This document shows, piece by piece, positions 1,978-50,155 of a DNA stretch of 53,116 bases. Location: positions 1-53,116 of the IMG/VR virus record IMGVR_UViG_3300038321_000021; one strand, written 5' to 3'. Source of the DNA: a virus. The number at the start of each line of letters is the position of its first letter. Position 1 is the stretch's first letter. The notes below the pieces were generated by a model that searched no databases, had not been told where the DNA came from, and saw only the letters and a list, made by a program, of their open reading frames with translations. A program made the translations under genes and the position numbers.

Positions 1978-4692
1978 TTAAGACTGTTCGCCAGTCGCTA
2001 AGTCTGTATAAATAAGTCTTGGTTTTCTATCATTACCAAATATAATTCGAGTGGTCAAAGTATTTGTGGTATCATTAACCGTCATACTGGCCACATCAGC
2101 TAGAATTTGTCTCGCTAAGAAGTCGGAATTTCGAGCGTTGAATGTCGCCTCAGTTGCAATAACGTCATTGTCACAATACTCTGCAACTTTCGTCCACATT
2201 TCTTCTGGTACCGGTTTGTCCCACGGTAAACCAAGTTCCTGATGATGAATACCTAATTCTATTTGGAACTTTTTTAGGGACTGCTTCTTACTGGAGAAAT
2301 CGTAAACGTCCGTATAAGACACATTATAGGCTTCCCCGAAGAAACAATTCCGACTACCGTTAATGATCTTCTGAGATAGATTGTAAAGTTGCTCATTTGT
2401 ATAACCCATAAGTCTGGCATACAAAATATGATTATCATATCTACGGCAGTTGAACCCTACCAATCTGAATTTCATCAGATCTTCAATTTCAGAAGGGGAG
2501 GGGTTAATCATTCGTACAACAGGTTTTCCTTCACCTTCAATCTTCCAGTTCACTAAGAATAGGTTAGGGAAGACCTCAACATCATAGAAAACCAGTTTAG
2601 CATCATCATTTTTTCCTCCAGCGGAGGGATCCGCAGACTTAAACTGCATTTTATTTACCAACTTGATACAATAGTCGGCTTGGTGAGTGCTATTTGCAGC
2701 AAACGCCAATACTGCATTACGCATATCAGTGACGTCATAATTCAAGTCACTAGCATATGTATCCTCTAGTATTTTATAAATAAAGTCGATACTGGGCTTA
2801 GTACCTGGATGTATCTCTTTGTTAAGATTTCGTTTGATCAGTGTTCTAAGCCCTTTCTCGCTTTTTATGGCTTCAAAATTTACCATTTTATCTTCTCCTT
2901 TCAGCGGTAAACCAGAGCTAATGGTCGAGATAGGTAAGTTGTTGCATTTTGACAATTTTCGTCTTAATGAACTTTTACCAGTGAACACCTTAACTTCCAC
3001 ATAGTCATCATAAACTCGGCTCAGTTTTGAGACATCTCCAGTGTAAATATAATGCAGATGTATTCCTGCACCACTCTTACTAAGCTCTGCATATGTTGGC
3101 GGCCATTTACTAGCTTCTTCAACGTTCCTTTCAAAAGATTTATTACCGTCTCCATCTGGAATATCGAAGTCAATAACAATATGATTTTCCGGAACTCTAA
3201 CGTAATGGAGTTTTGAAGTATTTAACTCTGATAATTTTGACGTAACTTCATCCCATTTTTCAAAAGGTGTTTCGTTTTCCGTAGCGTACTGAGCAATACA
3301 ATCAGCACATTCTTTGTCAAATATAGATTTGTTTTTTACAAACTTTATATGCGTCATCTTTGTTTCTCCCTCTTCATCACCATCCGTCCTTTCCTCAAAT
3401 TTTTCCGTCCGAAATCCGCTGTAATAACTTCGAACCCTAGATCCATCATCAAAATTAAATCGATCTTTGTAATCCCGGAAATAATTCCTAAGCTCCTCCT
3501 TAAAGATTCTTTGTGAATATGGAAATGCTACCTTTGCCTCATCGCAGTAAGTCTTATACATTTCCCAAGCGGCTTTAAGTGTTGTTCCATCTTCCTTCTT
3601 GAACACATGGTATGAGTCAATAACGAAGTTGTAGAAATCGTTAGATGCACCAAGCATCGCCACTGGAATATAATCATCGTACTTACTGGGGTTCTTCAAA
3701 TATACTTCTTGGCAGTGATAAGCAATTGCCCCCAGTTCAAAGCCGACCTGTTTGACAATTGTTTTATATTCCTTCGAACTCAACTTATCGCCGGAAGGAG
3801 ATACGTCAATTAGTCTTCGGATAAGACCTGATTTTGCATCTGTGATTTTTACCGGCTTATTTGTGCCAAGGAACAGAAAACATTTAAAGCGATTTGCATA
3901 GGTCGATTTGAATTTTTCGTTTACCGTCATAAGCTCGTGGGAAACAAGACTATTCAACCTCGTATTATCTTCAATTTTGGAGAGGTCGCCGTCGTGTTGA
4001 ATCGCAACAAGCGGATTGGTTTTAAACGCTTCCAGCGCAAAAGAATTACTGGAAGAACCAAGAGCCCTAGCATCAAACACTGAATAATAACCTTCAAACA
4101 ACTGCTGGATGATGTTTAGTATTGTAGATTTACCGGTTCCCGCTGCGCCATACAGAACCATGAATTTCTGCAATTTCTTAGAGTCTCCGGATACAATCGA
4201 CCCGATCGCCCACTCAATCTTATGTCGTTCTTCCTCTATATATAGAGTGGACATCAGCTTGTCATAGGCAGACAAATCGCCAGCTTCAAGCGGATAACTC
4301 AGCTTTTTACTGGCGTAATCTTTTTTATCGGTTTTGTTGTTGGAAAATATAAGTTTCTCATCCAACATATGAAAGTGATCCCTCATCTGCTTCTGACAGT
4401 ATTTATGCCAAGAGTCAATCATTCCAGACTCGGCGTCCCACATATGCAGAACTTTTATATTAGAGTCAAATTTTTGGCGGTTTTCTTCTGCGTATCTATC
4501 TAATTCACGATCGATCAGCTGTAAAGCGGAATGTTCGTCTGTAGACCACAGACCATATTCCTCAATCCAGATAGCGTAGAAATCACCACCTCGAATCATG
4601 AGATCTGAGCTTTTTTTGATGATGAACTTTGGATAGATTTCTATTACGCCACGTTTTGTACTGCGTGTTGAAATCATAAGAAAGTCAACCAT
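1978..4692 (-). CDS. Fusion protein: P4/D5-type SF3 helicase + AEP (prim-pol) primase + PolB 3'-5' exonuclease domain
   Basis: Helicase (aa ~170-300): Walker A YGAAGTGKST (aa ~181-190), VAIQHDGD, FLGTNKP. AEP motifs: IVIDFDI and SGAGIHLHYIY (aa ~505-550). Exonuclease: ExoI FYDVEVFPN, ExoII GFNCRRYDNHIL, ExoIII YCDNDVIAT (aa ~700-850). Confidence 0.8.
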   Translation of the reverse strand: MVDFLMISTRSTKRGVIEIYPKFIIKKSSDLMIRGGDFYAIWIEEYGLWSTDEHSALQLIDRELDRYAEENRQKFDSNIKVLHMWDAESGMIDSWHKYCQKQMRDHFHMLDEKLIFSNNKTDKKDYASKKLSYPLEAGDLSAYDKLMSTLYIEEERHKIEWAIGSIVSGDSKKLQKFMVLYGAAGTGKSTILNIIQQLFEGYYSVFDARALGSSSNSFALEAFKTNPLVAIQHDGDLSKIEDNTRLNSLVSHELMTVNEKFKSTYANRFKCFLFLGTNKPVKITDAKSGLIRRLIDVSPSGDKLSSKEYKTIVKQVGFELGAIAYHCQEVYLKNPSKYDDYIPVAMLGASNDFYNFVIDSYHVFKKEDGTTLKAAWEMYKTYCDEAKVAFPYSQRIFKEELRNYFRDYKDRFNFDDGSRVRSYYSGFRTEKFEERTDGDEEGETKMTHIKFVKNKSIFDKECADCIAQYATENETPFEKWDEVTSKLSELNTSKLHYVRVPENHIVIDFDIPDGDGNKSFERNVEEASKWPPTYAELSKSGAGIHLHYIYTGDVSKLSRVYDDYVEVKVFTGKSSLRRKLSKCNNLPISTISSGLPLKGEDKMVNFEAIKSEKGLRTLIKRNLNKEIHPGTKPSIDFIYKILEDTYASDLNYDVTDMRNAVLAFAANSTHQADYCIKLVNKMQFKSADPSAGGKNDDAKLVFYDVEVFPNLFLVNWKIEGEGKPVVRMINPSPSEIEDLMKFRLVGFNCRRYDNHILYARLMGYTNEQLYNLSQKIINGSRNCFFGEAYNVSYTDVYDFSSKKQSLKKFQIELGIHHQELGLPWDKPVPEEMWTKVAEYCDNDVIATEATFNARNSDFLARQILADVASMTVNDTTNTLTTRIIFGNDRKPRLIYTDLATGEQS

Positions 4693-9263: not shown

Positions 9264-9359
9264 AATTTTTCTCCTTTCAAAAAGAAAAAGGAAAAGCACC
9301 CTGTTAAAGGTACTCTCCCTCGTTAGAACTCTGTTTTCTATTTACTTAGGTACATCAAG

Positions 9360-9636: not shown

Positions 9637-9667
9637 GTTCTCCATTAAAGACCGTGTTTTTTTCGCG
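9637..9667 (-). promoter_or_regulatory. Promoter-like motif, divergent instance (CGCGAAAAAAACACGGTCTTTAATGGAGAAC on minus strand)
   Basis: Shares CGCGAAAA..ACAC..TTWATGGA with the 30-nt motif family. Lies upstream of the 9360..9599 gene. Confidence 0.4.
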
Positions 9668-9677
9668 TACCCAAATG

Positions 9678-10472
9678 CTACCTGTTGTACTCATATCTGG
9701 GGGCAATTTGATAATCGACAACAAGACAAGGAGTGCCTTCGTCCGCTAACTGTGAGCTGAACTGCAAATCTATGTATCCGTGATCGATGTTCCATCCGAG
9801 ATCATCGCCGATGCTGGTGGGGTTAAGCCCGATTTCGTAATAGAACTCGTTAAGAGAAATATACATTTCATCTCTCATTTGTCGATTGAGTTCATTTTCT
9901 GCCTTTTTCAACTTATCGATATCGGATTTAAAATATCGTCCTGAGATCACATCATAACAGAGGGTATTACCTCTTTCGGTAATGATGATTTCTCGACTAC
10001 TAACTGGATCTCGATTAATCCTATCCTTCGCCACGGCATCTCTTACGGACTGTTCTTTTTTCTCACCGATGGCTTCGATTACTTTTCCTTGGTATTCTTT
10101 CAGAGCTGACTCGGATAGAGTATAGGCCGTCGCTAATGCAGCGTTACGACGAACGTTTACGGAGCTTGCACCAATCAGACAAGAGATTGATAAACATCCG
10201 GTTATAGCTGCCGGAATATAGCATTTCCAGGTAAGTCGAATAACATCTTTTATCGGAAGTGGAGTGCTCCCATAAATAAAGTTTTGGTCATTATCCGCAC
10301 GTTCAAGACGCTCGTTATTAATAATTTCTAGTGCCTTTGGTGTTGCTCTTACCGCCATTACGGTAGTTGTAACCATTCCAGCGATACCGATGCCTGTTAA
10401 TATCTCTGGACTATGTTTACTTATTGCCGTCCGTATACTTTTGGCAATTTTAGATAAGTTTGGTTTATTCAT
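9678..10472 (-). CDS. Membrane-anchored paralogue B
   Basis: SKHSPEILTGIGIAGMVTTTVMAVRATPKALEI; C-terminal LNEFYYEIGLNPTSIGDDLGW. Confidence 0.75.
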   Translation of the reverse strand: MNKPNLSKIAKSIRTAISKHSPEILTGIGIAGMVTTTVMAVRATPKALEIINNERLERADNDQNFIYGSTPLPIKDVIRLTWKCYIPAAITGCLSISCLIGASSVNVRRNAALATAYTLSESALKEYQGKVIEAIGEKKEQSVRDAVAKDRINRDPVSSREIIITERGNTLCYDVISGRYFKSDIDKLKKAENELNRQMRDEMYISLNEFYYEIGLNPTSIGDDLGWNIDHGYIDLQFSSQLADEGTPCLVVDYQIAPRYEYNR

Positions 10473-11509: not shown

Positions 11510-11527
11510 GAGTCCTTGTTAGGACTC
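11510..11527 (-). terminator. Cassette hairpin GAGTCCT-AACA-AGGACTC plus T-run
   Basis: Minus strand GAGTCCTAACAAGGACTCTTTTTCTTT. Contains the stop codon of 11519..11677. Confidence 0.6.
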
Positions 11528-11677
11528 CTCTCCATCTCTCTTGGCAAGCGCCTCATTTACTTTTTCCTCAATCTTTTCATCCATCTTCTTGTCATTAACC
11601 CAATCGGTTATGAGCGTTGCTCCCATTCCGATCGCGGTTGCCGCAATACCGAGGATTTTAATTAATTTACTGTTCAT
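11519..11677 (-). CDS. Small membrane protein (52 aa), not in supplied track
   Basis: MNSKLIKILGIAATAIGMGATLITDW...RDGEES. SD AAAGGAGG. Ends in GAG TCC TAA inside the cassette hairpin. Confidence 0.6.
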   Translation of the reverse strand: MNSKLIKILGIAATAIGMGATLITDWVNDKKMDEKIEEKVNEALAKRDGEES

Positions 11678-11693
11678 AAAGCAATTACCTCCT

Positions 11694-11720
11694 TTCATAA
11701 TAGTGGTTGTAAATCTTGCG
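11694..11720 (-). promoter_or_regulatory. Promoter-like motif, class B
   Basis: Minus strand CGCAAGATTTACAACCACTATTATGAAA, directly upstream of the SD of 11519..11677. Confidence 0.4.
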
Positions 11721-11728
11721 GACTAGCC

Positions 11729-12529
11729 TTAGTAATCAAACTTGTTCGGGTCCCAAAGGGCCGATATCACACAGCATTCCATACCATCATCCAATACGGA
11801 TTGACTGTTTTCGAAGTCGAGCCACATAATTCCGCCCTCCAAGAATTCGTCCATCGACCATCCGATTTCATCACCGTGATTGATTGGTTCTATTCCTAGA
11901 AACTCATAAAATTCATTGATTGTGGTGTCGCCACGCAAACAAAGATTTCGGTTAACATGATATTGAGCATTTAAAACAGCAGCCATTGTCGCCGTAAAAT
12001 ATCTCTGCGAAAACAGGTCATAACAAAGGATTTTTTCGCTTTCTAGATCTAAATCAGCGGAGTACACCGAATATCCATCTGCTGAAACATAAGTATCCTT
12101 CGCCATTTGTGCTTTGATTTTGGAATCCGCGTCCTCACCATAAACGGTATTTGCAGACTTTCTATACCGCTGATAGGATTCACTCAATAAGGCATAAGCA
12201 CTCGTTAATGACGCTTGGTTGCGCTTGTTTAGGGCGTTTATTCCGACTATACAGGTAATGGTTGATAGACCCACCAAGGCTGCTGGAATATAACATTGCC
12301 AACAGGATTGAACCGCTTCGAGTTTTGTGTAGGCATACGGATCTCCGTCATGATTTTGCCTACTGTCGGCTCTAATAAGATCCACGGCTTTTGGTGTGAC
12401 TTTAACGGCCATTACAGAGGTGGCCACAACACCGATTGCGCCTATACAAGTTAGAATAGTTGGGGAGGACCGTTTTAAATATGACTTTGATTTGCGAAGT
12501 AACCCGTTTAGTTTTTGAATTCCTTTCAT
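11729..12529 (-). CDS. Membrane-anchored paralogue C
   Basis: KRSSPTILTCIGAIGVVATSVMAVKVTPKAVDL; C-terminal INEFYEFLGIEPINHGDEIGW. Confidence 0.75.
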   Translation of the reverse strand: MKGIQKLNGLLRKSKSYLKRSSPTILTCIGAIGVVATSVMAVKVTPKAVDLIRADSRQNHDGDPYAYTKLEAVQSCWQCYIPAALVGLSTITCIVGINALNKRNQASLTSAYALLSESYQRYRKSANTVYGEDADSKIKAQMAKDTYVSADGYSVYSADLDLESEKILCYDLFSQRYFTATMAAVLNAQYHVNRNLCLRGDTTINEFYEFLGIEPINHGDEIGWSMDEFLEGGIMWLDFENSQSVLDDGMECCVISALWDPNKFDY

Positions 12530-12553
12530 GTTTTTTCTCCTTTCAAAATATAA

Positions 12554-12573
12554 GAGTCCCTGTTAAAGGACTC
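12554..12573 (-). terminator. Cassette hairpin variant
   Basis: Minus strand GAGTCCTTTAACAGGGACTC followed by TTATATTTT. Confidence 0.5.
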
Positions 12574-12650
12574 CAAGTTTTAGAGAATCAGTATCCGGTC
12601 ACATCAATTCGATGTCTTATACTTCCGTCTTTCACGGTTAGAACCAACTG

Positions 12651-12681
12651 TTTCTCCATAATATAAGTTGTAAATTTCGCG
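12651..12681 (-). promoter_or_regulatory. Promoter-like motif, class B
   Basis: Minus strand CGCGAAATTTACAACTTATATTATGGAGAAA, immediately after hairpin 12692..12709. Confidence 0.4.
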
Positions 12682-12691
12682 TAAAAAGAAA

Positions 12692-12709
12692 GAGTCCTTG
12701 TTAGGACTC
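12692..12709 (-). terminator. Cassette hairpin plus T-run
   Basis: Minus strand GAGTCCTAACAAGGACTCTTTCTTTTT. Contains the stop of 12701..12871. Confidence 0.6.
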
Positions 12710-12871
12710 AGTCTTATACCAATCAGGGTGTTTACGTTTCATTTCTTCTTGATACTCATCACTAAATAAAAACATCACTTTGGAAACTTCCCCAGCTAAA
12801 CATATTGGATTTAGTTTTTTTGGTGCATATTTATCCGCACAATGTTTAATTTTGTTAATATCAATTTTCAT
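12701..12871 (-). CDS. Small hypothetical protein (56 aa)
   Basis: Start set to MKIDINKIKH behind SD GAAAGGAGTG. Ends ...YKTES with the stop in the hairpin. Confidence 0.6.
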   Translation of the reverse strand: MKIDINKIKHCADKYAPKKLNPICLAGEVSKVMFLFSDEYQEEMKRKHPDWYKTES

Positions 12872-12883
12872 GAAATTCACTCC

Positions 12884-12911
12884 TTTCATAATAGAGAGTG
12901 TAAATTATGCG
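12884..12911 (-). promoter_or_regulatory. Promoter-like motif, class B
   Basis: Minus strand CGCATAATTTACACTCTCTATTATGAAA, upstream of the SD of 12701..12871. Confidence 0.4.
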
Positions 12912-12941
12912 TAAATTTATTAAAAACGACCTTTTTCACTT

Positions 12942-13130
12942 AAAAATAGCACAAAAATAAGCCAAATCGTTTCTAAGGCTCTTATTAGCCTATTTAAGCG
13001 ACTTTGCCTATTTTAATGACTTATACCATTAGTTAATCTTTTAATGTGCCTTAAAACAGAAAATATGAGGTCTTTTTTCTTGCAGTCTTTAAAAAATGTG
13101 CATTTTAGGTAATTTCCTTGTAATATTCAC
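12942..13130. repeat. Non-coding dispersed repeat, copy R1 (diverged homologue of 14016..14215)
   Basis: Shared colinear blocks: aaaaatagc, aaatcgNttctaaggc, ttattagcc, tgactNat, aggNcttttttctt, ttgtaata. Confidence 0.6.
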
Positions 13131-13134
13131 GTAG

Positions 13135-13176
13135 AAAAACGAAGAGAACGTGTAATCCACACGGCTCTCCGCTTCT
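13135..13176 (-). terminator. Imperfect terminator-like hairpin plus T-run
   Basis: Minus strand GAAGCGGAGAGCCGTGTGGATTACACGTTCTCTTCGTTTTTC, after the stop of 13192..13584. Confidence 0.4.
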
Positions 13177-13191
13177 TGAACTATTAAGCCT

Positions 13192-13584
13192 TTATTTCTT
13201 AGTTGGTTTAAAACGGTTAAATAAACCTCTAAATGTAGTAGAGGTGTAAGTTCCAGTTTCCTCGAACCTAAATCCTCTCTTCATCCAGGCAGCATAGAAT
13301 ATCATCGGCAATATGATACCTGCTGCTTCTAATCCCAATCTAAAATATCGATCTTTGATCTGTTCTTCCAACTGGTCCTTCTTAAGTATGTTATCGCTTT
13401 CACGAGTGTCATACTTTTCATTAAAGTCCCATTCGTTTTTAGTCTCCTCGATTCTCAATCGGTAAAGTTTAGCCAAGTCATCAATTGCTGTCGATTTCTC
13501 TTTGCTTCCCGGTTCCAAGGTAGATAAGTCTCGAATCTCCGTCTTAATCTCCTCTCCTAACAAATCTTTGATTTCTTCGTCCAT
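13192..13584 (-). CDS. Hypothetical protein with C-terminal TM segment
   Basis: Start set to MDEEIKDLLG behind SD GAAAGGGGAATAAGA. TM segment LEAAGIILPMIFYAAW. Confidence 0.6.
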   Translation of the reverse strand: MDEEIKDLLGEEIKTEIRDLSTLEPGSKEKSTAIDDLAKLYRLRIEETKNEWDFNEKYDTRESDNILKKDQLEEQIKDRYFRLGLEAAGIILPMIFYAAWMKRGFRFEETGTYTSTTFRGLFNRFKPTKK

Positions 13585-13620
13585 TCTTATTCCCCTTTCA
13601 ATAAACAATTTAATTAGTTC

Positions 13621-13647
13621 CATAAAAGAGAGTGTTATTCGTGCGGA
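13621..13647 (-). promoter_or_regulatory. Promoter-like motif, class B (overlaps the 3' end of the upstream ORF)
   Basis: Minus strand CCGCACGAATAACACTCTCTTTTATGG resembles the 12884..12911 instance. Confidence 0.3.
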
Positions 13648-13856
13648 ATGAAGCTTTTAATACTAACCCTAAACGTTACGTATTTCTTTTTATAAATATC
13701 TCTAATATCTTTTGACAGTTCTAAAAACAAATATGGATCGTCGTCCGAATCAGAAGTATCCACTCGAAGAGAGCCGACTGACCGAGTTCGAAATATAATC
13801 ATTGTAAGAATGCAACCTATTAATACTCCGATTCCAAATATAATAATTAACTGCAT
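13635..13856 (-). CDS. Small membrane protein
   Basis: 73 aa. N-terminal TM MQLIIIFGIGVLIGCILTMIIF. SD AAGGAGGG. Confidence 0.6.
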   Translation of the reverse strand: MQLIIIFGIGVLIGCILTMIIFRTRSVGSLRVDTSDSDDDPYLFLELSKDIRDIYKKKYVTFRVSIKSFIPHE

Positions 13857-13949
13857 AACGAACCCTCCTTATTTCTAACCGGGAATTTCTCACATATCAA
13901 AATAGCATTTTTTATAGTTACCTGCGTGCTGGAAAATAACAAAAAGAAA

Positions 13950-13968
13950 GAGCCCTTGATTAGGACTC
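13950..13968 (-). terminator. Cassette hairpin without an upstream ORF (orphan)
   Basis: Minus strand GAGTCCTAATCAAGGGCTCTTTCTTTTT. The GAG TCC TAA frame has no start codon upstream. Confidence 0.5.
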
Positions 13969-14015: not shown

Positions 14016-14215
14016 ATAAAAATAGCTCTAAAAAAGGCTAAAATAAGAGAAATCGATTCTAAGGCCATTATTAGCCATTCTGAAGAGTTTAACCCCGTTT
14101 ATGACTAATCCATCGCGCACCCCGAAGAACGTGACTTAGAACGCATTTTAAAAGGACTTTTTTCTTAAAAGTTAAAATTTTTCCCATATTACCAGCCTTT
14201 TTGTAATAAAAGATA
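14016..14215. repeat. Non-coding dispersed repeat, copy R2
   Basis: Colinear with 12942..13130 (see R1). Confidence 0.6.
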
Positions 14216-32301: not shown

Positions 32302-32760
32302 TTATTTTTCGACTTTATCAACAACGGTACTTCTGTATGCGACCTTACCGGAGTCATAAATTCCGTTTTTTAGTTGGTTCATGTTATAACCTTGATCGGC
32401 AAGGGCCATGAATACTCCAACTTCTCCTCGTTTAGCTACAAATCGCACAACTTTACCAGATGGTGATGTTAAGTCGGAAACTTGTTCGTTCATTAGAGAA
32501 GCCATTTTTTTGTTATAAGAATTAATGGTGGCCGCACTTAGTTTACCTGATTTATTAACAGCGTTTGGGTCTTTCATTAACTCGTTGGCATATTTCATTA
32601 ATTCTTTCGAAGATTTTTTCCTGGCTTTATCTGTTATCTTGTCGGTGTTTTTCTTGACCCATTTGTGATCTTTTTTAGTAAGATTACCGAGCTGGGCTTG
32701 GGTTCTTCGTACACCCCATTTCATTCCGAGAATACCGTGATGGGCCAATCCATTATCCAT
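32302..32760 (-). CDS. HYG-LGMKWGVR leader protein 1
   Basis: MDNGLAHHGILGMKWGVRR followed by a basic Lys-rich body. Sits between TerL and the portal. Confidence 0.75.
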   Translation of the reverse strand: MDNGLAHHGILGMKWGVRRTQAQLGNLTKKDHKWVKKNTDKITDKARKKSSKELMKYANELMKDPNAVNKSGKLSAATINSYNKKMASLMNEQVSDLTSPSGKVVRFVAKRGEVGVFMALADQGYNMNQLKNGIYDSGKVAYRSTVVDKVEK

Positions 32761-34534: not shown

Positions 34535-35050
34535 TTATCCCTTAAGTTCTTTAATGGCTAACGCTATAGACAACGCAGAACCCGTTAAAGCAAGTGTAGT
34601 CCCAGCAACATCTAATGTTTTTTTGGTAAAATCTCGCCCCTTTGAAATACTCGGTGCGATTTCGGGTGCAAACAAAGTATTATACTGTTTCTCTAAAAGC
34701 TCACGATTGATGCGGTCACGCATTTCTTTATCCGTCATTTTAGATAGGTCCATTTTTTGTTTAGTGGATCTCGGACGAGTTTCTTTTTCTATATTTCGCA
34801 TTTGTTTAACTAGATCAGAACTTGTATCGACTGTTCTTTTTTTGCGTTCTATGTCTTCTTTAACCCACCGTTTCGGATCGGGTTTACTGGTATCTATCCT
34901 AGAATCTTTTTTTTTAGATAGATTAGTTTGAATATCTCGATCATAACGTTTTTTACCAGTTGGTGTAAGAGTTCCGTCTTTGTTCTGGTAACGTCTTACA
35001 CCCCATTTCATACCGAGGACACCGTAATGTTTTAGTTCGTTATTATTCAT
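34535..35050 (-). CDS. HYG-LGMKWGVR leader protein 2 (basic, C-terminal hydrophobic segment)
   Basis: Start set to MNNNELKHYGVLGMKWGVRR behind SD GAGGAGGAAATTCAAA. C-terminus VAGTTLALTGSALSIALAI. Confidence 0.75.
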   Translation of the reverse strand: MNNNELKHYGVLGMKWGVRRYQNKDGTLTPTGKKRYDRDIQTNLSKKKDSRIDTSKPDPKRWVKEDIERKKRTVDTSSDLVKQMRNIEKETRPRSTKQKMDLSKMTDKEMRDRINRELLEKQYNTLFAPEIAPSISKGRDFTKKTLDVAGTTLALTGSALSIALAIKELKG

Positions 35051-35411
35051 TTTGAATTTCCTCCTCTTCAATTGTTTTTACAGGATCCGCCGCAACTTGA
35101 ATTCTCCATTCAAGCTCTGATATAATTCGGTTTGTAGACTCGATCACAGCGGAAATAAGAGGAGGATCGAAAAGAAGCTTGACCTTCATATACACATAGG
35201 ACTTTACTAATTCCAATCTTGAATTAGATGGAATAAAATCCGTCCATACTGAAGACTTGTCTTCGATCGAAAAACCTTCGGAGGGACCGACACCAATCTG
35301 AGTTAAAATCGATAGCACAGAATTGATGTGCATAGTTAAGTCCGCATCGAAGTGTGTATACTCTTCCGCAATTCCGAGCATCTTCTTAATTGATGTCAGT
35401 ATACTCTCCAT
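35043..35411 (-). CDS. Conserved phage protein (head-tail connector / packaging-associated family candidate)
   Basis: 122 aa. LGIAEEYTHFDADLTMHINSVLSILTQIGVGP...LLFDPP pattern seen in many Firmicute phages (recollection). Function not established. Confidence 0.4.
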   Translation of the reverse strand: MESILTSIKKMLGIAEEYTHFDADLTMHINSVLSILTQIGVGPSEGFSIEDKSSVWTDFIPSNSRLELVKSYVYMKVKLLFDPPLISAVIESTNRIISELEWRIQVAADPVKTIEEEEIQNE

Positions 35412-36491: not shown

Positions 36492-37154
36492 TTATGTTTG
36501 TCTTTTTAGTTCCCGTATACTTTGTCGGGTTACTGGTTTTATTGAAATTACTTCCAGACTATCTTGTCGGTCGAATATGATGGACGGAACACGAGATATA
36601 ATTCCGGCATCGGCATCATCGATCATCATGTTATAACCTAAATCGGAAAGACTTTTTAAATATTTTTCTCTAACTTCGGAATTCGATGCCACTCCCAATG
36701 CTAATGAATTTTTATATAATCGAGCCTTTTCGTCATAGGTTTTAAGTTGATCTATTTTAGCTTTGATTTTATCTGGGGATGAAAAAACATTATACTGAGC
36801 TTCCGAGTTAGCTAATGCTTTTTTAAAATCATCATCGGAGTCAAGAAGTTTTATGAATTCATCAACTCTAACTTTCATCGAAGGAGCGACTAGATCTTTA
36901 GTTACTTTAAAAGTCATATTATATGCCGCTTGATTGAATGCGCTTCCTCTACGCATATATCCAAGAGCATCTTTTTTATCTATCGAAACAAAAGCATGTC
37001 CTTCTTTGTTTTTTTCAGAATCTGTAGCCGCCGTTCTATAAATCGTTGCTCCTTTTTTTATAGTGAAACCGTCTTTTCGAGATCCGATTTTATCCGCTTT
37101 TCTAACTCCCCACTTCATACCAAGGACTCCGTAGTGGGTTAATTCATTATCCAT
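36492..37154 (-). CDS. HYG-LGMKWGVR leader protein 3
   Basis: Start set to MDNELTHYGVLGMKWGVRK behind SD GAGGAGG. The track N-terminus (TTG at 37301) has no SD and a non-coding look. Confidence 0.75.
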   Translation of the reverse strand: MDNELTHYGVLGMKWGVRKADKIGSRKDGFTIKKGATIYRTAATDSEKNKEGHAFVSIDKKDALGYMRRGSAFNQAAYNMTFKVTKDLVAPSMKVRVDEFIKLLDSDDDFKKALANSEAQYNVFSSPDKIKAKIDQLKTYDEKARLYKNSLALGVASNSEVREKYLKSLSDLGYNMMIDDADAGIISRVPSIIFDRQDSLEVISIKPVTRQSIRELKRQT

Positions 37155-37351
37155 AATAATTACTGCCTCCTCTCGGTTAAATATTGTATGGTTCTCGTAT
37201 TGTTTCATGGGGGTTACATATAGTTTTGCATAGCATTTAAAAGAACTCACAAAGCCGACTAAAACCTTTTGAAAGGAGAATGAAAGAAATGAAGAAGTCA
37301 ACCTTGTGAGCTCTTTTAAATGCCATGCTGAGTAAACGCTTTCCTAAATAT

Positions 37352-37482: not shown

Positions 37483-37690
37483 TTTCTAAAATAATTTCCG
37501 TTTAAACGAATGAAAAATAGTATGCGTTTAGGTACTTGCCGCTTGTCTTGCCGCCTTCTTATAGATGTTTCTAAAATAATTTCCGTTTAAACGAATGATA
37601 AATAGTATGCGTTTAAACGAATGATAAATAGTATGCGTTTAGGTACTTGCCGCTTGTCTTACCACCTTCTTATAGATGTTTCTAAAATCG
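37483..37690. repeat. Tandem duplication (85-bp unit x ~2.3, with a nested 26-bp unit x3)
   Basis: The unit starting TTTCTAAAATAATTTCCGTTTAAACGAATGA recurs at 37483 and 37568, and partially at 37679. The 26-mer GTTTAAACGAATGAWAAATAGTATGC occurs at 37500, 37585 and 37611. Each unit includes a copy of the last ~45 nt of CDS 37639..37890. Confidence 0.85.
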
Positions 37691-37897: not shown

Positions 37898-40747
37898 TCA
37901 CTCCTTTCCTTTCAAGTATTTTAATACTGTGGTCGACGATACACCAAGAGCATTGGCTATGTCTTTAGTTGTGTAACCAGAAGCTTTCATAGATGCAATT
38001 CGATTAATCTTAGCTGTGCTCAAAGAATTAGTGGTTCTCGGTGTGGCTCGCTGTCTAAGATCATCTATATCGACGTTATTGAGAATCTGGGTAAGTCTGT
38101 TTTCACTAATAGCACCGGCTTGAATAGCTTCCCATTCACGGTCAGATATTGTAACGGGTAACCTCTTGGCACCGACAATAGCCCGCGCCTTAGTTAACTC
38201 TTGTTGACCGAGTTTCTTTATTTCATTACGAGTTATGTCAGGGTTAGCCTGCTTTTTAGCATTGATGGCGGCATTAGCCATCAACTGGGCCTGTCTCTCA
38301 CGAGGTGCGTTTTTAAGGGCCACGTTAAGCTGGGACATAAGGTGGTCTACTTCTTCTTGATAAACTTTTTTAGCAGAGGAGGAGTACTCTATATTACCAG
38401 CCGTAACCATCTCCTTACGAGCCTGGTTGCCTAGGGCCTTCATCCGGTTGGCATATTCAGCGTAAACTCTTTCTGCCGGGGTGTTAGCGTCGGATACTAG
38501 TGTAAAGGCGTCGTCGGTTTCGGCCATCTTGGTAGATTGCTGTGTTCTAGTTTTTACTTTTCCTGTTTTGTCCACATATGTTTCCGCTGGTTTGTAAACG
38601 TAAGCACTTTTTGGTAAGGTTGGATCATACCAATCTTTATCCGCCTTATTGGCGACTCTATTGTATAGTAGAGCTCCTTCAGGACGAGTTGGATCGTACC
38701 AAGCCTTGTCTTTTGTATTAATTTTTGGACTGCCTGTTACTTTTAGTCTTGGTTCTTGTGATTTAGCTCTCGAGATTAAAGTAGCTGCTCCTTCTCTGTA
38801 TCGACCCTCTTTGTCATAGCTACCTTGATATTTTTTCTTAAGAGACGTTATATTGTTGTCAATCTCACTTTGTTTATAATCCAATTTATGTTTTTCAGCA
38901 TCGATAACCACCATGCTATGACGAACAGCTTTTGCTAATTCGTCTTGAGTGGCTCCTCTTAAAGTCATATCCGTAATTAGATTCGAAGCTTTACCCATTT
39001 CGGTTTGAGTATTACTCATAACCTTAATTTTTTTACCGTGACTATTATAATATTGGTCTCCTTTTTTTACAGTGCCGTAGCTCATTTTTGGGTCAAAATC
39101 ATCCAACCCATGTTTCGGGTCCATTCTAGTAGATGTGATTTTAACTTTACCCCCAGTGGGGATGACCATAACGGTATCACCATCAAAGTCGGCGCCAGAT
39201 AAACGATTAGCAACTTTACTGTTAATTCCGATAGCATCCGCTGGAGTGTTTCCTAAAATCCTCCGAGCTTCTGCTTGTTTATTATTAACGGTTAAGATTG
39301 GAATTTCAAACGTTCCACCATGAGGAAATCGTATCAAAGCAACTTGTTCCCCCGGTTCGAAGTTAGGAGCATAAACTTCGTTGTCTTTCATAGAGGTGAT
39401 AGGAAGTATTACCTGATACCTCTGACGGGGAAGGGCTGCCGCTTGTAGATGAATAGCCGCTGAATCGCAATCATCCGAAAACTTTTTTAACAAAACTTTC
39501 TTCAGCGTCGGATTCGGAAGTGACATAATTTCATCAAACTCTGCTTGTTTGTCGGCCGATGCTAGGTTGAGCTGTTTTTCTATCAAAGTTTTACTCTGTT
39601 TGGAAAGAAACTGAGAGGGAAGATTTTTGCTCCATTCGTCCCAATCGCCTTCTTCGGCTCTTTTATTGATTAAAGATAGTTGACGTTTCCCATCCTTGTC
39701 GATGTAATAACTTTGACCTCCTGCTTTAATTAGAGAACCGAAAGGATTGTCTGGATCTTTTTCAATGTTCTTTAGCACGTCACCTTTAGGAGTTCCTTGT
39801 TTTTTGTTGGTATTAAAAATAGCATCAACTCCATCTGGCATATTATCGGAGTATACAGCCATTCCTTTTATATATTTATTATCATCCACTAGAATACGAA
39901 CTTGTGCGTAGTGGGAGTTTCCTAAAGAAAGATCATCTACTCCTCTTCGAATCTCGACTACGCCATCTTTGTCATTTCCGCCTTCTTCCGCATAACGAAT
40001 CTTAATACGATTAGAATCCATACTCTTCGGATAGACAAAGGTATCAAAAGTGTCACCACCATCATGGGAAATATAATCTCGAAGAGAATGCACATTTTCG
40101 AGATTATAGATTTCTTTATGCTCGGTTCCCGGAGGACAGAGAACTTGGATATTAGTTTGTTTTCCGGGGTTTGTAACTTGGGGAACGCCGCCGCCATATA
40201 GTTCGTAACCCTCCATCTCTAAAATATAAAGAGCTTGTTTCATTTTTTCTCTAGAAATATTACCCAGCTCTCGTTCAACACCAACGCCAACATCGATCAT
40301 TCCTTTAGTGTCTACTTGTTCTTTGAGAAAATCGGCTACTTTTTTAGCTTGGTTCATACGGGCTTCGGAATTCTCATTTAACAAAGAGCGTACAGACGAA
40401 TCATTTTTATAACCCATCTTTTCAGCAATCTCATTCAGACTGTATCCTTTTTCTCGCAAACCTTTTGCAGTGTCAACTTGTAGCGACCTTCGCTCTGCGT
40501 TTGCTAAACTCACTTGTGTCCTAAATTGAGTCGAATCCAATCCCATAGATTTAGCAATTGCCATGTCGCCTTTCCAGGTCTTGCCGTCGTCATCTGTAAA
40601 AGTGAAGTTTTCTTTTCGAAGTTCATCCACACGACTCAAAAAATCACCGCTACGTTGAAAAGGGTTTTCGCCAGAACCCCAAGGATAACGCCCAGAACGT
40701 TTTGGCATACCATAATGTTTTAAAATATCTTCAGCAATGGGATTCAT
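37898..40747 (-). CDS. Single-polypeptide two-barrel DNA-dependent RNA polymerase (YonO-like) with N- and C-terminal HTH-like segments
   Basis: Beta-like barrel motif KYIKGMAVYSDNMPDGVDAIFNTN (aa 291-314). Beta-prime-like VALIRFPHGGTFEIPILTV...AIGINSKVANRLSGADFDGDTVMVIP (aa 468-530; ADFDGD codons at 39176..39193). HTH-like GYSLNEIAEKMGYKNDSSVRSLL and GYTTKDIANALGVSSTTVLKYLKG. Confidence 0.75.
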   Translation of the reverse strand: MNPIAEDILKHYGMPKRSGRYPWGSGENPFQRSGDFLSRVDELRKENFTFTDDDGKTWKGDMAIAKSMGLDSTQFRTQVSLANAERRSLQVDTAKGLREKGYSLNEIAEKMGYKNDSSVRSLLNENSEARMNQAKKVADFLKEQVDTKGMIDVGVGVERELGNISREKMKQALYILEMEGYELYGGGVPQVTNPGKQTNIQVLCPPGTEHKEIYNLENVHSLRDYISHDGGDTFDTFVYPKSMDSNRIKIRYAEEGGNDKDGVVEIRRGVDDLSLGNSHYAQVRILVDDNKYIKGMAVYSDNMPDGVDAIFNTNKKQGTPKGDVLKNIEKDPDNPFGSLIKAGGQSYYIDKDGKRQLSLINKRAEEGDWDEWSKNLPSQFLSKQSKTLIEKQLNLASADKQAEFDEIMSLPNPTLKKVLLKKFSDDCDSAAIHLQAAALPRQRYQVILPITSMKDNEVYAPNFEPGEQVALIRFPHGGTFEIPILTVNNKQAEARRILGNTPADAIGINSKVANRLSGADFDGDTVMVIPTGGKVKITSTRMDPKHGLDDFDPKMSYGTVKKGDQYYNSHGKKIKVMSNTQTEMGKASNLITDMTLRGATQDELAKAVRHSMVVIDAEKHKLDYKQSEIDNNITSLKKKYQGSYDKEGRYREGAATLISRAKSQEPRLKVTGSPKINTKDKAWYDPTRPEGALLYNRVANKADKDWYDPTLPKSAYVYKPAETYVDKTGKVKTRTQQSTKMAETDDAFTLVSDANTPAERVYAEYANRMKALGNQARKEMVTAGNIEYSSSAKKVYQEEVDHLMSQLNVALKNAPRERQAQLMANAAINAKKQANPDITRNEIKKLGQQELTKARAIVGAKRLPVTISDREWEAIQAGAISENRLTQILNNVDIDDLRQRATPRTTNSLSTAKINRIASMKASGYTTKDIANALGVSSTTVLKYLKGKE

Positions 40748-41585: not shown

Positions 41586-41656
41586 AAGTAGGCCTCCTTT
41601 CCTGTTTTTAGACAAACGAAAAAGAAAAAGTAAACGCCGGTCGCGTTTTATTCTTC

Positions 41657-41687
41657 TCTCTTCATAAAAGGGCATGTTTTTTTCGCG
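41657..41687 (-). promoter_or_regulatory. Promoter-like motif, divergent instance
   Basis: Minus strand CGCGAAAAAAACATGCCCTTTTATGAAGAGA closely resembles the 9637..9667 instance. Lies upstream of the nuclease genes. Confidence 0.4.
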
Positions 41688-41737: not shown

Positions 41738-42067
41738 TGGCCAAATGCCCACTTATTTTGGCCATATCTATATATATCCTTAATCTTTTTATCACAGTTA
41801 ATAGAGAATAAAAGTGGGCAAGTGGGCTTTTCGTCCGAATAATTTTTCAAATCGGAGCAAATCGCCCAAAAACACCCAAAAAACGCCCAAAAAGGGCCGT
41901 TTTGAGAAAATGGACCCAAAATAAAAAGCCCACTTTCGTTTTTAAAAGTGGGCTTTTAGCCCACTTATTTGGCCAAAAAACCAAAAAATCGTCCGAACAC
42001 TCTCCAAAAATCAGCCCAATTTTTCACAAAACTCAAAAAGCCCACTTTGCAAAAATTAAAAGTGGGC
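41738..42067. promoter_or_regulatory. Iteron / operator array: 8 copies of GCCCACTT (both orientations) plus phased A-tracts
   Basis: GCCCACTT at 41747, 41928, 41959 and 42040. AAGTGGGC at 41812, 41820 (tandem), 41946 and 42060. Two pairs form hairpin-capable inverted repeats. CGCCCAAAAA / CACCCAAAAAA / CGCCCAAAAA repeat at 41861..41895. Confidence 0.7.
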
Positions 42068-42071
42068 AGAA

Positions 42072-42080
42072 ATTATATCA
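42072..42080 (-). promoter_or_regulatory. Extended -10 promoter candidate (TGATATAAT) firing into the iteron array
   Basis: Minus strand TGATATAAT. No good -35. The inverted repeat GCCCACTTT...AAAGTGGGC begins a few nt downstream. Confidence 0.35.
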
Positions 42081-42118
42081 ATTTTTAAAGGTTTACGGAC
42101 GAAATTTGCAAAAAGAAA

Positions 42119-42136
42119 GAGTCCTTGTTAGGACTC
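42119..42136 (-). terminator. Cassette hairpin plus T-run
   Basis: Minus strand GAGTCCTAACAAGGACTCTTTCTTTTT. Contains the stop of 42128..42415. Confidence 0.6.
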
Positions 42137-42438: not shown

Positions 42439-42469
42439 GTTTCCATAACAGGAGGTGTATGTTTAGCGC
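42439..42469 (-). promoter_or_regulatory. Promoter-like motif, class A
   Basis: Minus strand GCGCTAAACATACACCTCCTGTTATGGAAAC. Confidence 0.5.
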
Positions 42470-42477: not shown

Positions 42478-42494
42478 GAGGGGATGAACCCCTC
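42478..42494 (-). terminator. Cassette-position hairpin, different stem sequence
   Basis: Minus strand GAGGGGTTCATCCCCTC followed by TTCTTTTT. Confidence 0.5.
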
Positions 42495-42638
42495 ATTTTG
42501 ATATCCATATGACTGATGTTAAATCATCCATTATATCAATTTGATAAGTATCTCCTCTATCTTCTAAAAATTTGGTTGCTATTTCCTTCGTTGCAAAAGG
42601 TACTTCCATTCCATCTTTAAAAAATGCTCCATAGCTTT

Positions 42639-42827
42639 CTAAAATTGCACTAAAATTGCACGGTCTTTTGAATCATCCATTAAATAGTTTTTCATTATTT
42701 TTTCCAAGGTATTACTCTTTAATTTTTTATTAAGTAATACTGCCGTTGTTAAAATAACAATAGAACCTCCAACAGATAACACAATAATTTTATGCTCCTC
42801 ATAAAACTTTTTTACTTTTTTAAACAT
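42639..42827 (-). CDS. Small membrane protein (62 aa)
   Basis: TM IIVLSVGGSIVILTTAVLL. SD GAAAGGAGAAAAATC. Confidence 0.6.
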   Translation of the reverse strand: MFKKVKKFYEEHKIIVLSVGGSIVILTTAVLLNKKLKSNTLEKIMKNYLMDDSKDRAILVQF

Positions 42828-42851: not shown

Positions 42852-42881
42852 GTTTCCATAATAGAGTATGTTATTATTGCG
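42852..42881 (-). promoter_or_regulatory. Promoter-like motif, class A (degenerate)
   Basis: Minus strand CGCAATAATAACATACTCTATTATGGAAAC. Confidence 0.4.
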
Positions 42882-42908: not shown

Positions 42909-42927
42909 GAGCCCTTGTTAGAGGCTC
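42909..42927 (-). terminator. Cassette hairpin variant plus T-run
   Basis: Minus strand GAGCCTCTAACAAGGGCTCTTTCTTTT. Confidence 0.5.
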
Positions 42928-43147: not shown

Positions 43148-43179
43148 TTTCTTTTCTCCTTTCAAAATATAAAAAGAAA

Positions 43180-43197
43180 GAGTCCTTGTTCGGACTC
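43180..43197 (-). terminator. Cassette hairpin plus T-run
   Basis: Minus strand GAGTCCGAACAAGGACTCTTTCTTTTT. Overlaps the TGA of 43196..43393. Confidence 0.6.
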
Positions 43198-43393
43198 AAA
43201 TTCTTTTACCATTATTAAATTTAGATTTGATTTTTTCAACAATCATTTCTCGATTACTGACAATATAACTTCCACCTATCAGAACCGCATAAACTGCCAC
43301 ATTAAGGATAATAATTTCCTTTCTATGTATTTTATTAAATTCTTTTCTAGGTTCCTTTACCATTGTTTTATAATCCTGAAACATTTCTTTCAT
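43196..43393 (-). CDS. Small membrane protein (65 aa)
   Basis: TM IIILNVAVYAVLIGGSYIV. SD AAAGGAGGAAATGAAAA. Confidence 0.6.
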   Translation of the reverse strand: MKEMFQDYKTMVKEPRKEFNKIHRKEIIILNVAVYAVLIGGSYIVSNREMIVEKIKSKFNNGKRI

Positions 43394-43408
43394 TTTTCAT
43401 TTCCTCCT

Positions 43409-43438
43409 TTTAATAGTGGTTTCCATAATAGGAGGTGT
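43409..43438 (-). promoter_or_regulatory. Promoter-like motif, class A (consensus instance)
   Basis: Minus strand CGCGAAAATTACACCTCCTATTATGGAAAC, directly after hairpin 43459..43477. Confidence 0.5.
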
Positions 43439-43458
43439 AATTTTCGCGTAAAAAGAAA

Positions 43459-43477
43459 GAGCCCTTGTTTAGGACTC
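43459..43477 (-). terminator. Cassette hairpin plus T-run
   Basis: Minus strand GAGTCCTAAACAAGGGCTCTTTCTTTTT. Contains the stop of 43469..43753. Confidence 0.6.
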
Positions 43478-43778: not shown

Positions 43779-43808
43779 GTTTCCATAACAGGAGGTGTAA
43801 TGTTAGCG
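43779..43808 (-). promoter_or_regulatory. Promoter-like motif, class A
   Basis: Minus strand CGCTAACATTACACCTCCTGTTATGGAAAC. Confidence 0.5.
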
Positions 43809-46088: not shown

Positions 46089-46107
46089 GAGCCCTTGTTC
46101 AGGACTC
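46089..46107 (-). terminator. Cassette hairpin plus T-run
   Basis: Minus strand GAGTCCTGAACAAGGGCTCTTTCTTTTT. Contains the TGA stop of 46099..46263. Confidence 0.6.
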
Positions 46108-46289: not shown

Positions 46290-46319
46290 GTTTCCATAAT
46301 AGGAGGTGTAATTTTCGCG
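46290..46319 (-). promoter_or_regulatory. Promoter-like motif, class A (consensus instance)
   Basis: Minus strand CGCGAAAATTACACCTCCTATTATGGAAAC. Confidence 0.5.
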
Positions 46320-46329: not shown

Positions 46330-46617
46330 TTATGAATTTATCCATTCGTAGTACTTCATACCACCTATAACTCCTAAAGTTGGAGCCAGCATTTCAGCGG
46401 CAGTTTTACTCCCAGTGATACCATATACCGCACCTGAGCCAAAACCACTACTAAATAAACCAGCCGCAACTGAAGCTCCTACCTTTAGTATCTTTTCGTT
46501 TCTAGAAGCTCGTTCCTGTTTGGTTTTTGTTGTTCTTTTAGAAGTCGAGGTCCCTCGATCTTTACGAACTCCCCACTTCATTCCTAGCACGCCATAATGT
46601 CTCAATTCGTTATTCAT
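46330..46617 (-). CDS. HYG-LGMKWGVR leader protein 4 (basic linker, Gly-rich hydrophobic C-terminus)
   Basis: Start set to MNNELRHYGVLGMKWGVRK behind SD GGAGGTTTATATT. C-terminus VGASVAAGLFSSGFGSGAVYGI...LGVIGGM. Confidence 0.7.
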   Translation of the reverse strand: MNNELRHYGVLGMKWGVRKDRGTSTSKRTTKTKQERASRNEKILKVGASVAAGLFSSGFGSGAVYGITGSKTAAEMLAPTLGVIGGMKYYEWINS

Positions 46618-47059
46618 AATATAAACCTCCATTTTTAATATCGATAATTCTTTGATTACTGCTGCCGTACATTTTTCCGGCAACTATTTTATCCTGTTCG
46701 AATCTACCGTCAACAATATAATCAGCCATCCTCGCAAGTTGAGTGTGTTTGATTTCTTCGTAGTTAAACCCGGTGTAAATCCATATATCTAAATTTTTAG
46801 GAAGAAGTTTTAAGAGGGAGACACATTCCTCTTGTTGATAGAACGGATCTCCCCCCGATAGCGTTAAACCATCAATATGCTTACATCTCTTAATATCCTT
46901 CGCTAGTTCTTCCAGAGAAATTTCTTTTCCTCCGTTGAAGTCCCATGTTTCTGGGTTTTGACACCCAACACAATGATGAGTGCATCCTTGACAGAATATA
47001 ACATAACGGACACCGTAACCATTAACAAGCGAACAAGATAGGGTTCCTGCTATTCGCAT
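46610..47059 (-). CDS. nrdG: Anaerobic RNR activating protein (radical SAM)
   Basis: Start set to MRIAGTLSCSLVNGYG behind SD AAGGAGG. Cluster CQGCTHHCVGCQNPETW. Confidence 0.85.
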   Translation of the reverse strand: MRIAGTLSCSLVNGYGVRYVIFCQGCTHHCVGCQNPETWDFNGGKEISLEELAKDIKRCKHIDGLTLSGGDPFYQQEECVSLLKLLPKNLDIWIYTGFNYEEIKHTQLARMADYIVDGRFEQDKIVAGKMYGSSNQRIIDIKNGGLYYE

Positions 47060-50106: not shown

Positions 50107-50137
50107 TATTTTTTCTCCTTTCAAATATAAAAAGAAA

Positions 50138-50155
50138 GAGCCCTTGTTAGGACTC
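50138..50155 (-). terminator. Cassette hairpin plus T-run
   Basis: Minus strand GAGTCCTAACAAGGGCTCTTTCTTTTT. Contains the stop of 50147..50368. Confidence 0.6.

Follow-up and report, generated by a model that had tools for sequence, protein, structure and literature searches.

The morons of lambdoid phages, described by Hendrix and colleagues, are autonomous promoter–gene–terminator units that lie between other genes, and the class III promoters and Tφ hairpin terminator of phage T7 form a signal set specific to the phage polymerase. In bacteria, pyrBI-type attenuators and terminators that overlap stop codons also occur. T4-type phages carry promoter early stem-loops (PeSLs), in which conserved promoter and terminator-hairpin motifs punctuate hyperplastic regions of small ORFans (Arbiol et al. 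2010, PMC2839356; Comeau et al. 2014, PMC4122927) and the promoter is a strong, σ70-like early promoter (PMC2839356, PMC4122927). Here, we analyse a repeated hairpin in the viral record IMGVR_UViG_3300038321_000021, whose full length of 53,116 nt we refer to as the window. An earlier reading of this DNA (the original prediction) had described the hairpin as a PeSL-like mobile cassette that supplies the stop codon of small open reading frames (ORFs). From comparisons of the sequence with its relatives, we consider it fairly probable that the repeated element acts as the 3′ signal in about a dozen small, self-contained transcription units, each combining a phage-specific promoter, one small gene or tRNA and the hairpin, with inherited signals, stop codons drawn from the hairpin and modules that are exchanged between phages.

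Putative promoter–gene–hairpin units

The hairpin has the consensus GAGTCC-TAACAA-GGRCTC followed by a tail, TTTCTTTTT, and ten near-identical copies lie on the gene strand where the original prediction had placed them; every gene of the window, and every promoter and hairpin described below, is on the minus strand. The core pattern has five matches within the mismatch limits, compared with 0.04–0.06 expected by chance. Hairpins are confined to 9.3–14.0 kb and 41.6–50.4 kb, where they sit among small ORFs in hypervariable regions, and the structural module contains none.

A second motif, CGC-N7-ACA-N8-WATGR, occurs in 12 exact copies, with no exact copy on the plus strand of the window, and allowing up to one mismatch gives 17 matches against an expectation of 2.2. 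Its fuller form spans roughly 30 nt (CGCGAAAA-TTACA-N5-TATTATGGA, also written CGC-N7-ACA-N5-TATWATGR), with CGC, ACA and TATTATGGA as conserved blocks, alongside which CGCG and TATTATGG blocks can be named. All 12 copies of this putative promoter are followed by a hairpin with a T-tract: ten after one small gene, one after a tRNA remnant and one after nothing. The content of the units varies between relatives.

This order differs from the one first proposed, in which most hairpins were directly followed by a promoter and each small ORF was bracketed by terminator–promoter units. A promoter lies within 30 nt after only 4 of the 11 hairpins in the window (12709, 43477, 42927 and 42494) and after 37% of those across the family; the twelve units are therefore of the form promoter–gene–hairpin, not terminator–promoter brackets.

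Along the gene strand, the first unit starts at the promoter at 50376–50401 and holds ORF73, whose last codons and stop (ETES*) lie in the hairpin GAGTCCTAACAAGGGCTC plus TTTCTTTTT at 50138–50155, with the ribosome-binding site (RBS) of the next gene directly 3′. ORF54 follows the promoter at 46294–46319 and ends with E-S-TGA (KEES*) in GAGTCCTGAACAAGGGCTC plus T-tract (46089–46107), upstream of nrdD, which itself has no promoter motif. ORF119 lies between the promoter at 43783–43808 and GAGTCCTAAACAAGGGCTC plus T-tract (43459–43477), which provides its stop (KEES*) and is directly followed by the promoter of ORF65 (43423–43448). ORF65 in turn ends in a TGA that overlaps the first GA of the stem of GAGTCCGAACAAGGACTC plus T-tract (43180–43197). 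The variant GAGCCTCTAACAAGGGCTC plus T-tract (42909–42927) has the ORF76 stop a few nucleotides 5′ and, about 20 nt 3′, the promoter of ORF62 (42856–42881). A differing hairpin, GAGGGGTTCATCCCCTC plus TTCTTTTT, at 42478–42494, with the promoter of ORF126 (42443–42468) directly 3′, had been called unrelated in sequence; it retains the GAG…CTC stem base and the TTCTTTTT tail, and the rest of the hairpin does differ. ORF126 stops (WKES*) in GAGTCCTAACAAGGACTC plus T-tract (42119–42136), after which comes a σA-like extended −10 (TTGATATAAT). The promoter at 41662–41687 meets the hairpin and T-tract AAACGCGACCGGCGTTT (41632–41648) after about 15 nt, and this pair is a tiny unit or an attenuator just upstream of the operon with the RNA polymerase gene.

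In the other hypervariable region, GAGTCCTAATCAAGGGCTC plus T-tract (13950–13968) marks the end of the late region and, as originally described, receives no ORF: no minus-strand ORF of at least 40 aa ends in this hairpin. The promoters at 13620–13645 and 12886–12911 precede ORF143 and ORF62b, respectively, and ORF62b takes its stop (KTES*) from the hairpin at 12692–12709, which has the promoter of the tRNA remnant (12656–12681) directly 3′. The tRNA-remnant unit is ended by the variant GAGTCCTTTAACAGGGACTC (12554–12573). ORF59 (promoter 11695–11720) stops (GEES*) in the hairpin at 11510–11527, an arrangement kept in many relatives (a family of 35 contexts), and the unit that begins at the promoter upstream of ORF79 (9642–9667) is closed by a diverged eleventh copy (…GAGTACCTTTAACAGGGTGCT…) plus TTTCTTTTT at 9288–9321. 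The six ORF ends listed in the original prediction (GEES, KTES, WKES, KEES, KEES and ETES), each with TAA or TGA inside the hairpin, are all present as described. The gene between promoter 42881 and hairpin 42494 (42500–42827) is divided into 62 aa and 38 aa in two frames; its homologues in two related loci (L156 and L159) have 107–108 aa, and it is likely to represent a frameshift or pseudogene, or else a sequencing error.

Within the tRNA-remnant unit (12681–12554), the sequence at 12575–12655 keeps the ends of a tRNA acceptor stem and is recognised by neither ARAGORN nor Rfam; relatives have a tRNA-Ile gene in this slot. ARAGORN found no tRNA in the window, and Rfam at gathering thresholds found no RNA family there, with a relaxed search of 12.4–14.4 kb returning a chance-level match only. 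In one related locus the tRNA gene starts 3–4 nt after the promoter ATG (L032, 8623–8696), a second has the same arrangement (L082, 313–386), and in the Faecalibacterium phage FP_oengus the tRNA gene starts within the last bases of the promoter. ARAGORN also detects tRNA-like genes just 3′ of promoter-like motifs in L022 (5922–5993), L099, L112 and L179. The tRNA genes support a promoter function of the motif. Some related phages have odd tRNAs right after the promoter, one with the anticodon UUA; this is a possible ochre suppressor, which would read the UAA of the hairpin.

The spacing between ACA and the TAT box is only 5–6 nt and several copies lack the −11 A. A σ70 promoter scan of the window gave no enrichment over shuffled sequences, and therefore host-type promoters do not explain the motif. 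As judged from its copies, the motif fits neither the σ70 spacing nor the −11A rule.

The hairpin as a probable terminator and as a source of stop codons

Predicted folding energies of the hairpin RNAs with their flanks range from −11.5 to −18.6 kcal/mol, with z-scores between −2.9 and −5.7, and for the common GGGCTC variant the antisense strand gives a poor fold (z −1.0, −8.2 kcal/mol). The stem has 7 bp and is lengthened where a purine run pairs with the U-tract. At positions −6 to −3 upstream, 94–97% of bases are purines, complementary to this tract, and the conserved C at +4 of UUUCUUUUU has the G at −4 as its counterpart. Position 4 of the stem is the variable pair: in 239 unique contexts of the main type, it is U·G in 169, U-A in 51, C-G in about 10, A-U in 1 and C·A in none; U·G pairs are thus tolerated and C·A is absent, which indicates that the hairpin acts as sense-strand RNA. 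The tail TTTCTTTTT has T in 91–100% of 260 contexts at eight of its nine positions, and 76% of nearby ORFs end inside the hairpin or up to 12 nt upstream. The original prediction had read the element as an intrinsic terminator, and this anatomy (a G+C-containing stem, a U-tract, sense-strand orientation and placement at gene ends) agrees with it: purine run, GAGUCC, UAACAA, GGRCUC and UUUCUUUUU together have the form of an intrinsic-terminator-type RNA structure. In our model, the hairpin would end or attenuate, and probably stabilise, the transcript begun at the roughly 30-nt promoter. We infer these promoter and terminator roles, and the polymerase assignment discussed below, from sequence.

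To describe how ORFs meet the hairpin, we surveyed 246 main-type hairpins with an ORF of at least 40 codons ending nearby. The stop is at +6 in the hairpin (GAG NCN TRR) in 148 of these contexts (60%), a count that is inflated by the retrieval of loci with TAA- and TGA-containing patterns. A TGA overlapping the first GA of the stem is found in 16, an upstream stop in 76 (23 of them 2–12 nt upstream, in the purine run), and ORFs that read through the hairpin in only 4. By their last 50 residues, the ORFs with an E-S-stop ending represent at least 46 unrelated families, and variants of the loop keep the stop at the same position as TAA, TGA or TAG. Most of the small ORFs contain a membrane-like segment, consistent with their earlier description as mostly membrane proteins. 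Relatives with longer stems have the same loop, and their annotated ORFs end before the hairpin, by 0–8 nt in Arthrobacter phage Mudcat and by roughly 11–13 nt in FP_oengus.

These patterns suggest that the E-S-stop ending is a by-product of zero-spacing compaction onto a constrained terminator. Genes of this phage group would first have been packed tight against their terminators, leaving no spacer. With the short, 7-bp stem of the Lachnospiraceae lineage, the conserved loop would then present its UAA six bases into the hairpin, and ORFs without a stop of their own would survive only in the frame that meets this UAA; ORFs entering in the other two frames would traverse the terminator, and such ORFs are nearly absent. 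A conserved terminator loop that doubles as the stop codon of dozens of unrelated genes would represent extreme genome compaction. We also considered a portable three-frame stop cassette and rejected it, as stops in all three frames near the hairpin occur in only 43 of 260 copies.

Distribution and the phage RNA polymerase

The exact 27-nt hairpin and tail occur in more than 117 IMG/VR viral contigs and at 64 loci in bacterial genomes, mostly of Lachnospiraceae and other Clostridia, including R. torques ATCC 27756, Hungatella, Blautia, Enterocloster, Lachnospira and Dorea. Most of the bacterial loci have homologues of window ORFs or the phage promoter motif nearby and are therefore taken as prophages or phage contigs; the remainder have hairpin contexts that are also found in viral contigs. 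Among the viral loci, many are related to the window, with 68–82% nucleotide identity. Together, the window and the loci contain 441 hairpins with a GAG…CTC base in 299 unique contexts, the main type being present in 148 identical copies. The cassette is thus an inherited feature of a large phage lineage and not peculiar to the window genome. A host-wide terminator or a mobile element resembling a miniature inverted-repeat transposable element (MITE) was rejected on the grounds that bacterial copies are nearly all in prophage-like contexts.

The window encodes an RdRP/YonO-like single-chain RNA polymerase of 949 aa (37898–40747), which matches PHROG 4291 ‘RNA-dependent RNA polymerase’, has a helix-turn-helix (HTH) domain at each end and shows a weak match to the RdRP core; a PDB sequence search with this protein returned nothing useful. 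Homologues are found in FP_oengus, a human-gut contig and about 250 Arthrobacter, Gordonia, Streptomyces and Lactococcus phages, at 44–55% identity (35–38% in the Lactococcus phages). The family is a putative YonO/crAss-like RNA polymerase and a signature of this phage supergroup (preprint 10.1101/842583), whose members include Oengusvirus, Lactococcus Fremauxvirus (1706-like) and the Arthrobacter, Gordonia and Streptomyces phages.

A promoter weight matrix built from the 12 window sites only, used at a threshold of at least 12 bits, matched the gene strand 12 times in FP_oengus, 7 times in Mudcat, 7 times in Gordonia phage Chikenjars and 11 times in Streptomyces phage Rima, and the opposite strand in none of them. 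All four phages encode the polymerase homologue (44–48% identity), which in Mudcat is gp94. Lactococcus phage P1046 gave only two weak, low-scoring matches. The actinophage consensus, TCGCA-N3-ATTACACGYCCTATAATGAGACCCC, is an AT-rich 30-mer in genomes of 45–59% G+C. As the motif is unlike that of σ70, the hosts belong to two phyla and the shared polymerase carries two HTH domains, the phage polymerase is the likeliest reader: the 949-aa enzyme probably reads the promoter, and it probably reads the hairpin too.

Features of the hairpin recur in the same phages. FP_oengus has its own repeated hairpins with the GAGC…GCTC base and TTTCTTTTT tail seen in the window, but with GAAA loops, and long-stem hairpins with a (C)TAACA(A/C) loop and T-tract are present in Mudcat (4), Rima (1), Chikenjars (1–2) and FP_oengus (1). 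We suggest that the promoter, the TAACA loop and the tail would be inherited signals of the supergroup that encodes the RdRP/YonO-like polymerase. A bolder proposal, which we put forward tentatively and regard as possible rather than probable, is that the promoter and the hairpin with its UAACA loop, GAG-CUC base and UUUCUUUUU tail make up a dedicated start/stop code of this uncharacterised polymerase family, conserved from Lachnospiraceae phages to Streptomyces phages. If so, these polymerases would recognise DNA through their own terminal HTH domains, and the hairpin would provide sequence-specific termination for an enzyme without the flap domain that cellular polymerases use. The promoter sequence of YonO was still undetermined in 2017 (PMC5467207), and our literature search found no promoter or terminator reported for the RdRP/YonO-like family. 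The window and its relatives offer concrete candidates for both signals, and culturable members of the group exist (Mudcat, Gordonia and Streptomyces phages, and FP_oengus).

Exchange of modules between relatives

In four related loci (L013, L003, L017 and L019), the ORF65 module (43171–43453 in the window) lies upstream of nrdD, between promoter 46319 and hairpin 46107, which in the window flank ORF54. The alignment partner switches inside the shared promoter and inside the shared hairpin, and the two promoters involved in the relocation (46294–46319 and 43423–43448) are identical over 31 nt. Another relative (L081) is without several of the window modules, with boundaries at cassette elements, and gene maps of 14 relatives show that the content between nrdD and the polymerase operon is very different from phage to phage and punctuated by promoters and hairpins. 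Ends of high-scoring segment pairs fall within 30 nt of a cassette element in 19.9% of cases, compared with 3.5% for random positions, an enrichment that is confounded by gene boundaries and that became smaller in a control-matched test. Upstream of the main hairpin there are about 140 distinct contexts, which it connects to about 99 distinct ones downstream. When two sequences share the upstream context, the downstream context is shared as well in 28% of pairs at hairpins, compared with 50% at 1,616 control gene ends.

Since identical promoters and hairpins flank unrelated genes, they could serve as short patches of homology for the exchange of modules between slots and between phages. The original prediction had expected gene-content breakpoints in relatives to coincide with the cassettes; the ORF65 junctions and the reduced linkage at hairpins support this, and at the level of clusters the excess is marginal. 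A PeSL-like role in shuffling is thus supported by examples and by a modest statistical signal, and is not proven.

Alternative explanations

Several observations weigh against our account of autonomous, exchangeable units with phage-specific signals. The cluster-level excess of mosaic junctions is modest (55% versus 37% and 59% versus 38%; Fisher p 0.10 and 0.07), and ordinary gene ends also show frequent mosaicism. Five hairpins in the window precede genes without a promoter motif (nrdD, ORF76, ORF249, ORF266 and ORF147), with the RBS immediately following, so that termination at these places would be partial or leaky, or further promoters exist. The loops of FP_oengus are mostly GAAA, and the TAACA loop is hence not universal in the group; moreover, the related loci were retrieved with the hairpin itself, which inflates the uniformity of the loop and its TAA. 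The polymerase that starts and stops at these sites is assigned by deduction, and the hairpin is also perfectly ordinary as an intrinsic terminator for the host RNA polymerase.

That last point leads to the alternative that survives best, although we consider it unlikely: that these are ordinary terminators of the host polymerase, with no phage-specific recognition, and that their identity reflects recent duplication or gene conversion within the lineage (concerted evolution). The canonical anatomy, with a GC-containing stem followed by a U-tract, fits this explanation, as does the fact that each lineage has its own ‘house’ hairpin (GCTGTGGAGAAATCTGCGGC types in FP_oengus and GAGTCC…GGRCTC in the window lineage) and the 31-nt identity of the two promoters that flank the moved ORF65 module. 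Phages of another phylum, however, also have the TAACA loop, the GAG…CTC base and the UUUCUUUUU tail, which recent copying within the lineage cannot explain, and the hairpin is identical in some 140 unrelated upstream contexts in phages whose core genes are only 68–82% identical. Furthermore, all the phage-type promoters are paired with such a hairpin.

The position of the stop raises a second alternative, a translation-gated attenuator acting in the manner of pyrBI, in which a ribosome at the loop stop would cover the 3′ arm, block termination and so couple a promoter-less downstream gene to translation of the small ORF. The fixed in-hairpin position of the stop in 60% of contexts and the placement of several hairpins directly before the RBS of a promoter-less gene are what such gating would look like. 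The stop position is independent of what follows the hairpin, however, whether promoter, RBS or other sequence (chi-square p = 0.62), the stops of Mudcat and FP_oengus lie just before the hairpin rather than inside it, and the tRNA units have the same hairpin without any ORF. We therefore regard gating by translation as quite improbable, and prefer compaction of genes onto a terminator as the origin of the in-hairpin stop.

Least probable of all is that the element is a site for RNA processing or protein binding (by a nuclease or a phage protein that binds the UAACAA loop), a DNA site for a recombinase or homing endonuclease, or a MITE-like mobile element: the loop is conserved more than stem stability requires and the genome does encode an HNH endonuclease and four DUF7211 paralogues, but the U·G pairs and strict gene-strand orientation speak against a DNA palindrome, the invariant U-tract is a hallmark of termination, and bacterial copies are almost only prophage-like rather than scattered in host DNA, with no target-site duplications seen.

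Other features of the genome

Bases 1–99 are an exact repeat of 53018–53116 (99 bp), and the window is a complete genome, circularly closed or terminally redundant; as one closed phage genome it has 53,017 bp. Its proteins include a terminase, a portal protein, a capsid–protease fusion, NrdD and a split DNA polymerase-primase, and the phage is a siphovirus-type gut phage of Gram-positive hosts, unrelated to T4-type phages. A near-identity DNA search with 6 kb of the window against GenBank phages gave no match.

An I-HmuI-like HNH/NUMOD homing endonuclease gene interrupts the DNA polymerase-primase gene and divides it into two ORFs (141–1415, 1408–1962 and 1978–4692), and in three related loci (L013, L015 and L169) the polymerase is split likewise by an ORF of roughly 190–207 aa without annotation. 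The gene at 49432–50181, directly after hairpin 50155, contains a Tad3 domain, an inhibitor of type I Thoeris (Pfam E = 1e-29), and is a candidate anti-defence gene. The four DUF7211 paralogues (32302–32760, 34535–35071, 36492–37301 and 46330–46683) have a common N-terminal motif and a 62-nt DNA repeat, and are dispersed among conserved genes, resembling free-standing mobile genes. Two DUF6353 paralogues are located at 9678–10472 and 11729–12529; the equivalent region of FP_oengus has three.

Several non-coding repeats accompany these genes. Three overlapping direct repeats of about 89 nt, with 26-nt sub-repeats, occupy 37489–37688, just 3′ of the RNA polymerase gene and before the packaging and structural genes, and a repeat of about 50 nt (AATRGCTAATAAKRGCCTTAGAAWCGATTT…) is present in two long non-coding gaps, at 14020–14075 and 12960–13015 (minus strand). 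After hairpin 42136, the non-coding stretch at 41800–42110 (minus strand) contains the σA-like extended −10 (TTGATATAAT) together with GCCCACTT/AAGTGGGC, present six times across both orientations; an origin, an early host-polymerase promoter that precedes the polymerase operon, or both may be located here. Some hairpins are followed by a further conserved motif, consisting of (C)CGTACGCAGGTKAC, about 12 nt and TGnTATTTTGATAT, as seen at 13890–13945 (minus strand) and at many related loci (such as L084, L090 and L097), and FP_oengus has a similar sequence after one hairpin. The motif could represent another class of promoter, or an operator where the array of small membrane-protein genes begins.

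Comparison with known systems

Our literature search found the motifs undescribed for Oengusvirus, 1706-like phages and Arthrobacter cluster AM/AU phages, with the limit that its coverage of subscription journals was incomplete and such absence is not proof of novelty. The paper on Arthrobacter clusters AM/AU noted arrays of small membrane-protein genes and no regulatory motifs (PMC5513430). For the annotation of such genomes, the hairpin is of practical use: it marks gene ends and delimits one-gene expression units, and many of the genes in these units encode small membrane proteins.

The likeness to PeSLs, on which the original prediction rested, holds in part. Small ORFs in hyperplastic regions are punctuated by the motifs in both cases, junctions of insertion, deletion and replacement between relatives lie in the motifs, and the cassettes would, by analogy, keep each module transcriptionally isolated. 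In contrast to the σ70-type promoter of PeSLs, however, the promoter here is a group-specific motif of roughly 30 nt in phages of Actinobacteria and Firmicutes hosts, and the regular unit is promoter–gene–hairpin, with the hairpin-then-promoter order in only 37% of cases. The hairpin here also overlaps coding sequence and provides the stop codon, and the genome that carries it is that of a siphovirus-type phage of Gram-positive hosts. The idea of cassette shuffling, developed for T4-like phages, would thereby extend to a very different and abundant group of gut and soil phages.

Like morons, the units mostly hold one gene that appears to be served by a promoter and a factor-independent terminator of its own, and their presence varies among relatives. 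Unlike morons, about a dozen units stand in series here with one common promoter and hairpin sequence, and the phage polymerase probably reads them, whereas morons are read by the host polymerase in a lysogen. The long (roughly 25–30 nt), conserved promoters repeated through the genome and its relatives are reminiscent of T7, and so, by analogy, would be a hairpin and U-run terminator that is leaky, so that downstream genes are still expressed; the polymerase here, however, is not T7-like but of the two-barrel RdRP/YonO-like type with HTH domains. With pyrBI attenuators the hairpin has in common that coding sequence enters the terminator, so that a ribosome can hinder hairpin formation, but we found no regulatory association, and the ORFs are real small proteins of many families, not leader peptides. 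Taken together, these comparisons indicate that the cassettes share the logic of PeSLs and morons, and that what appears new in them is the type of promoter, the order of the unit and the overlap of the hairpin with coding sequence.

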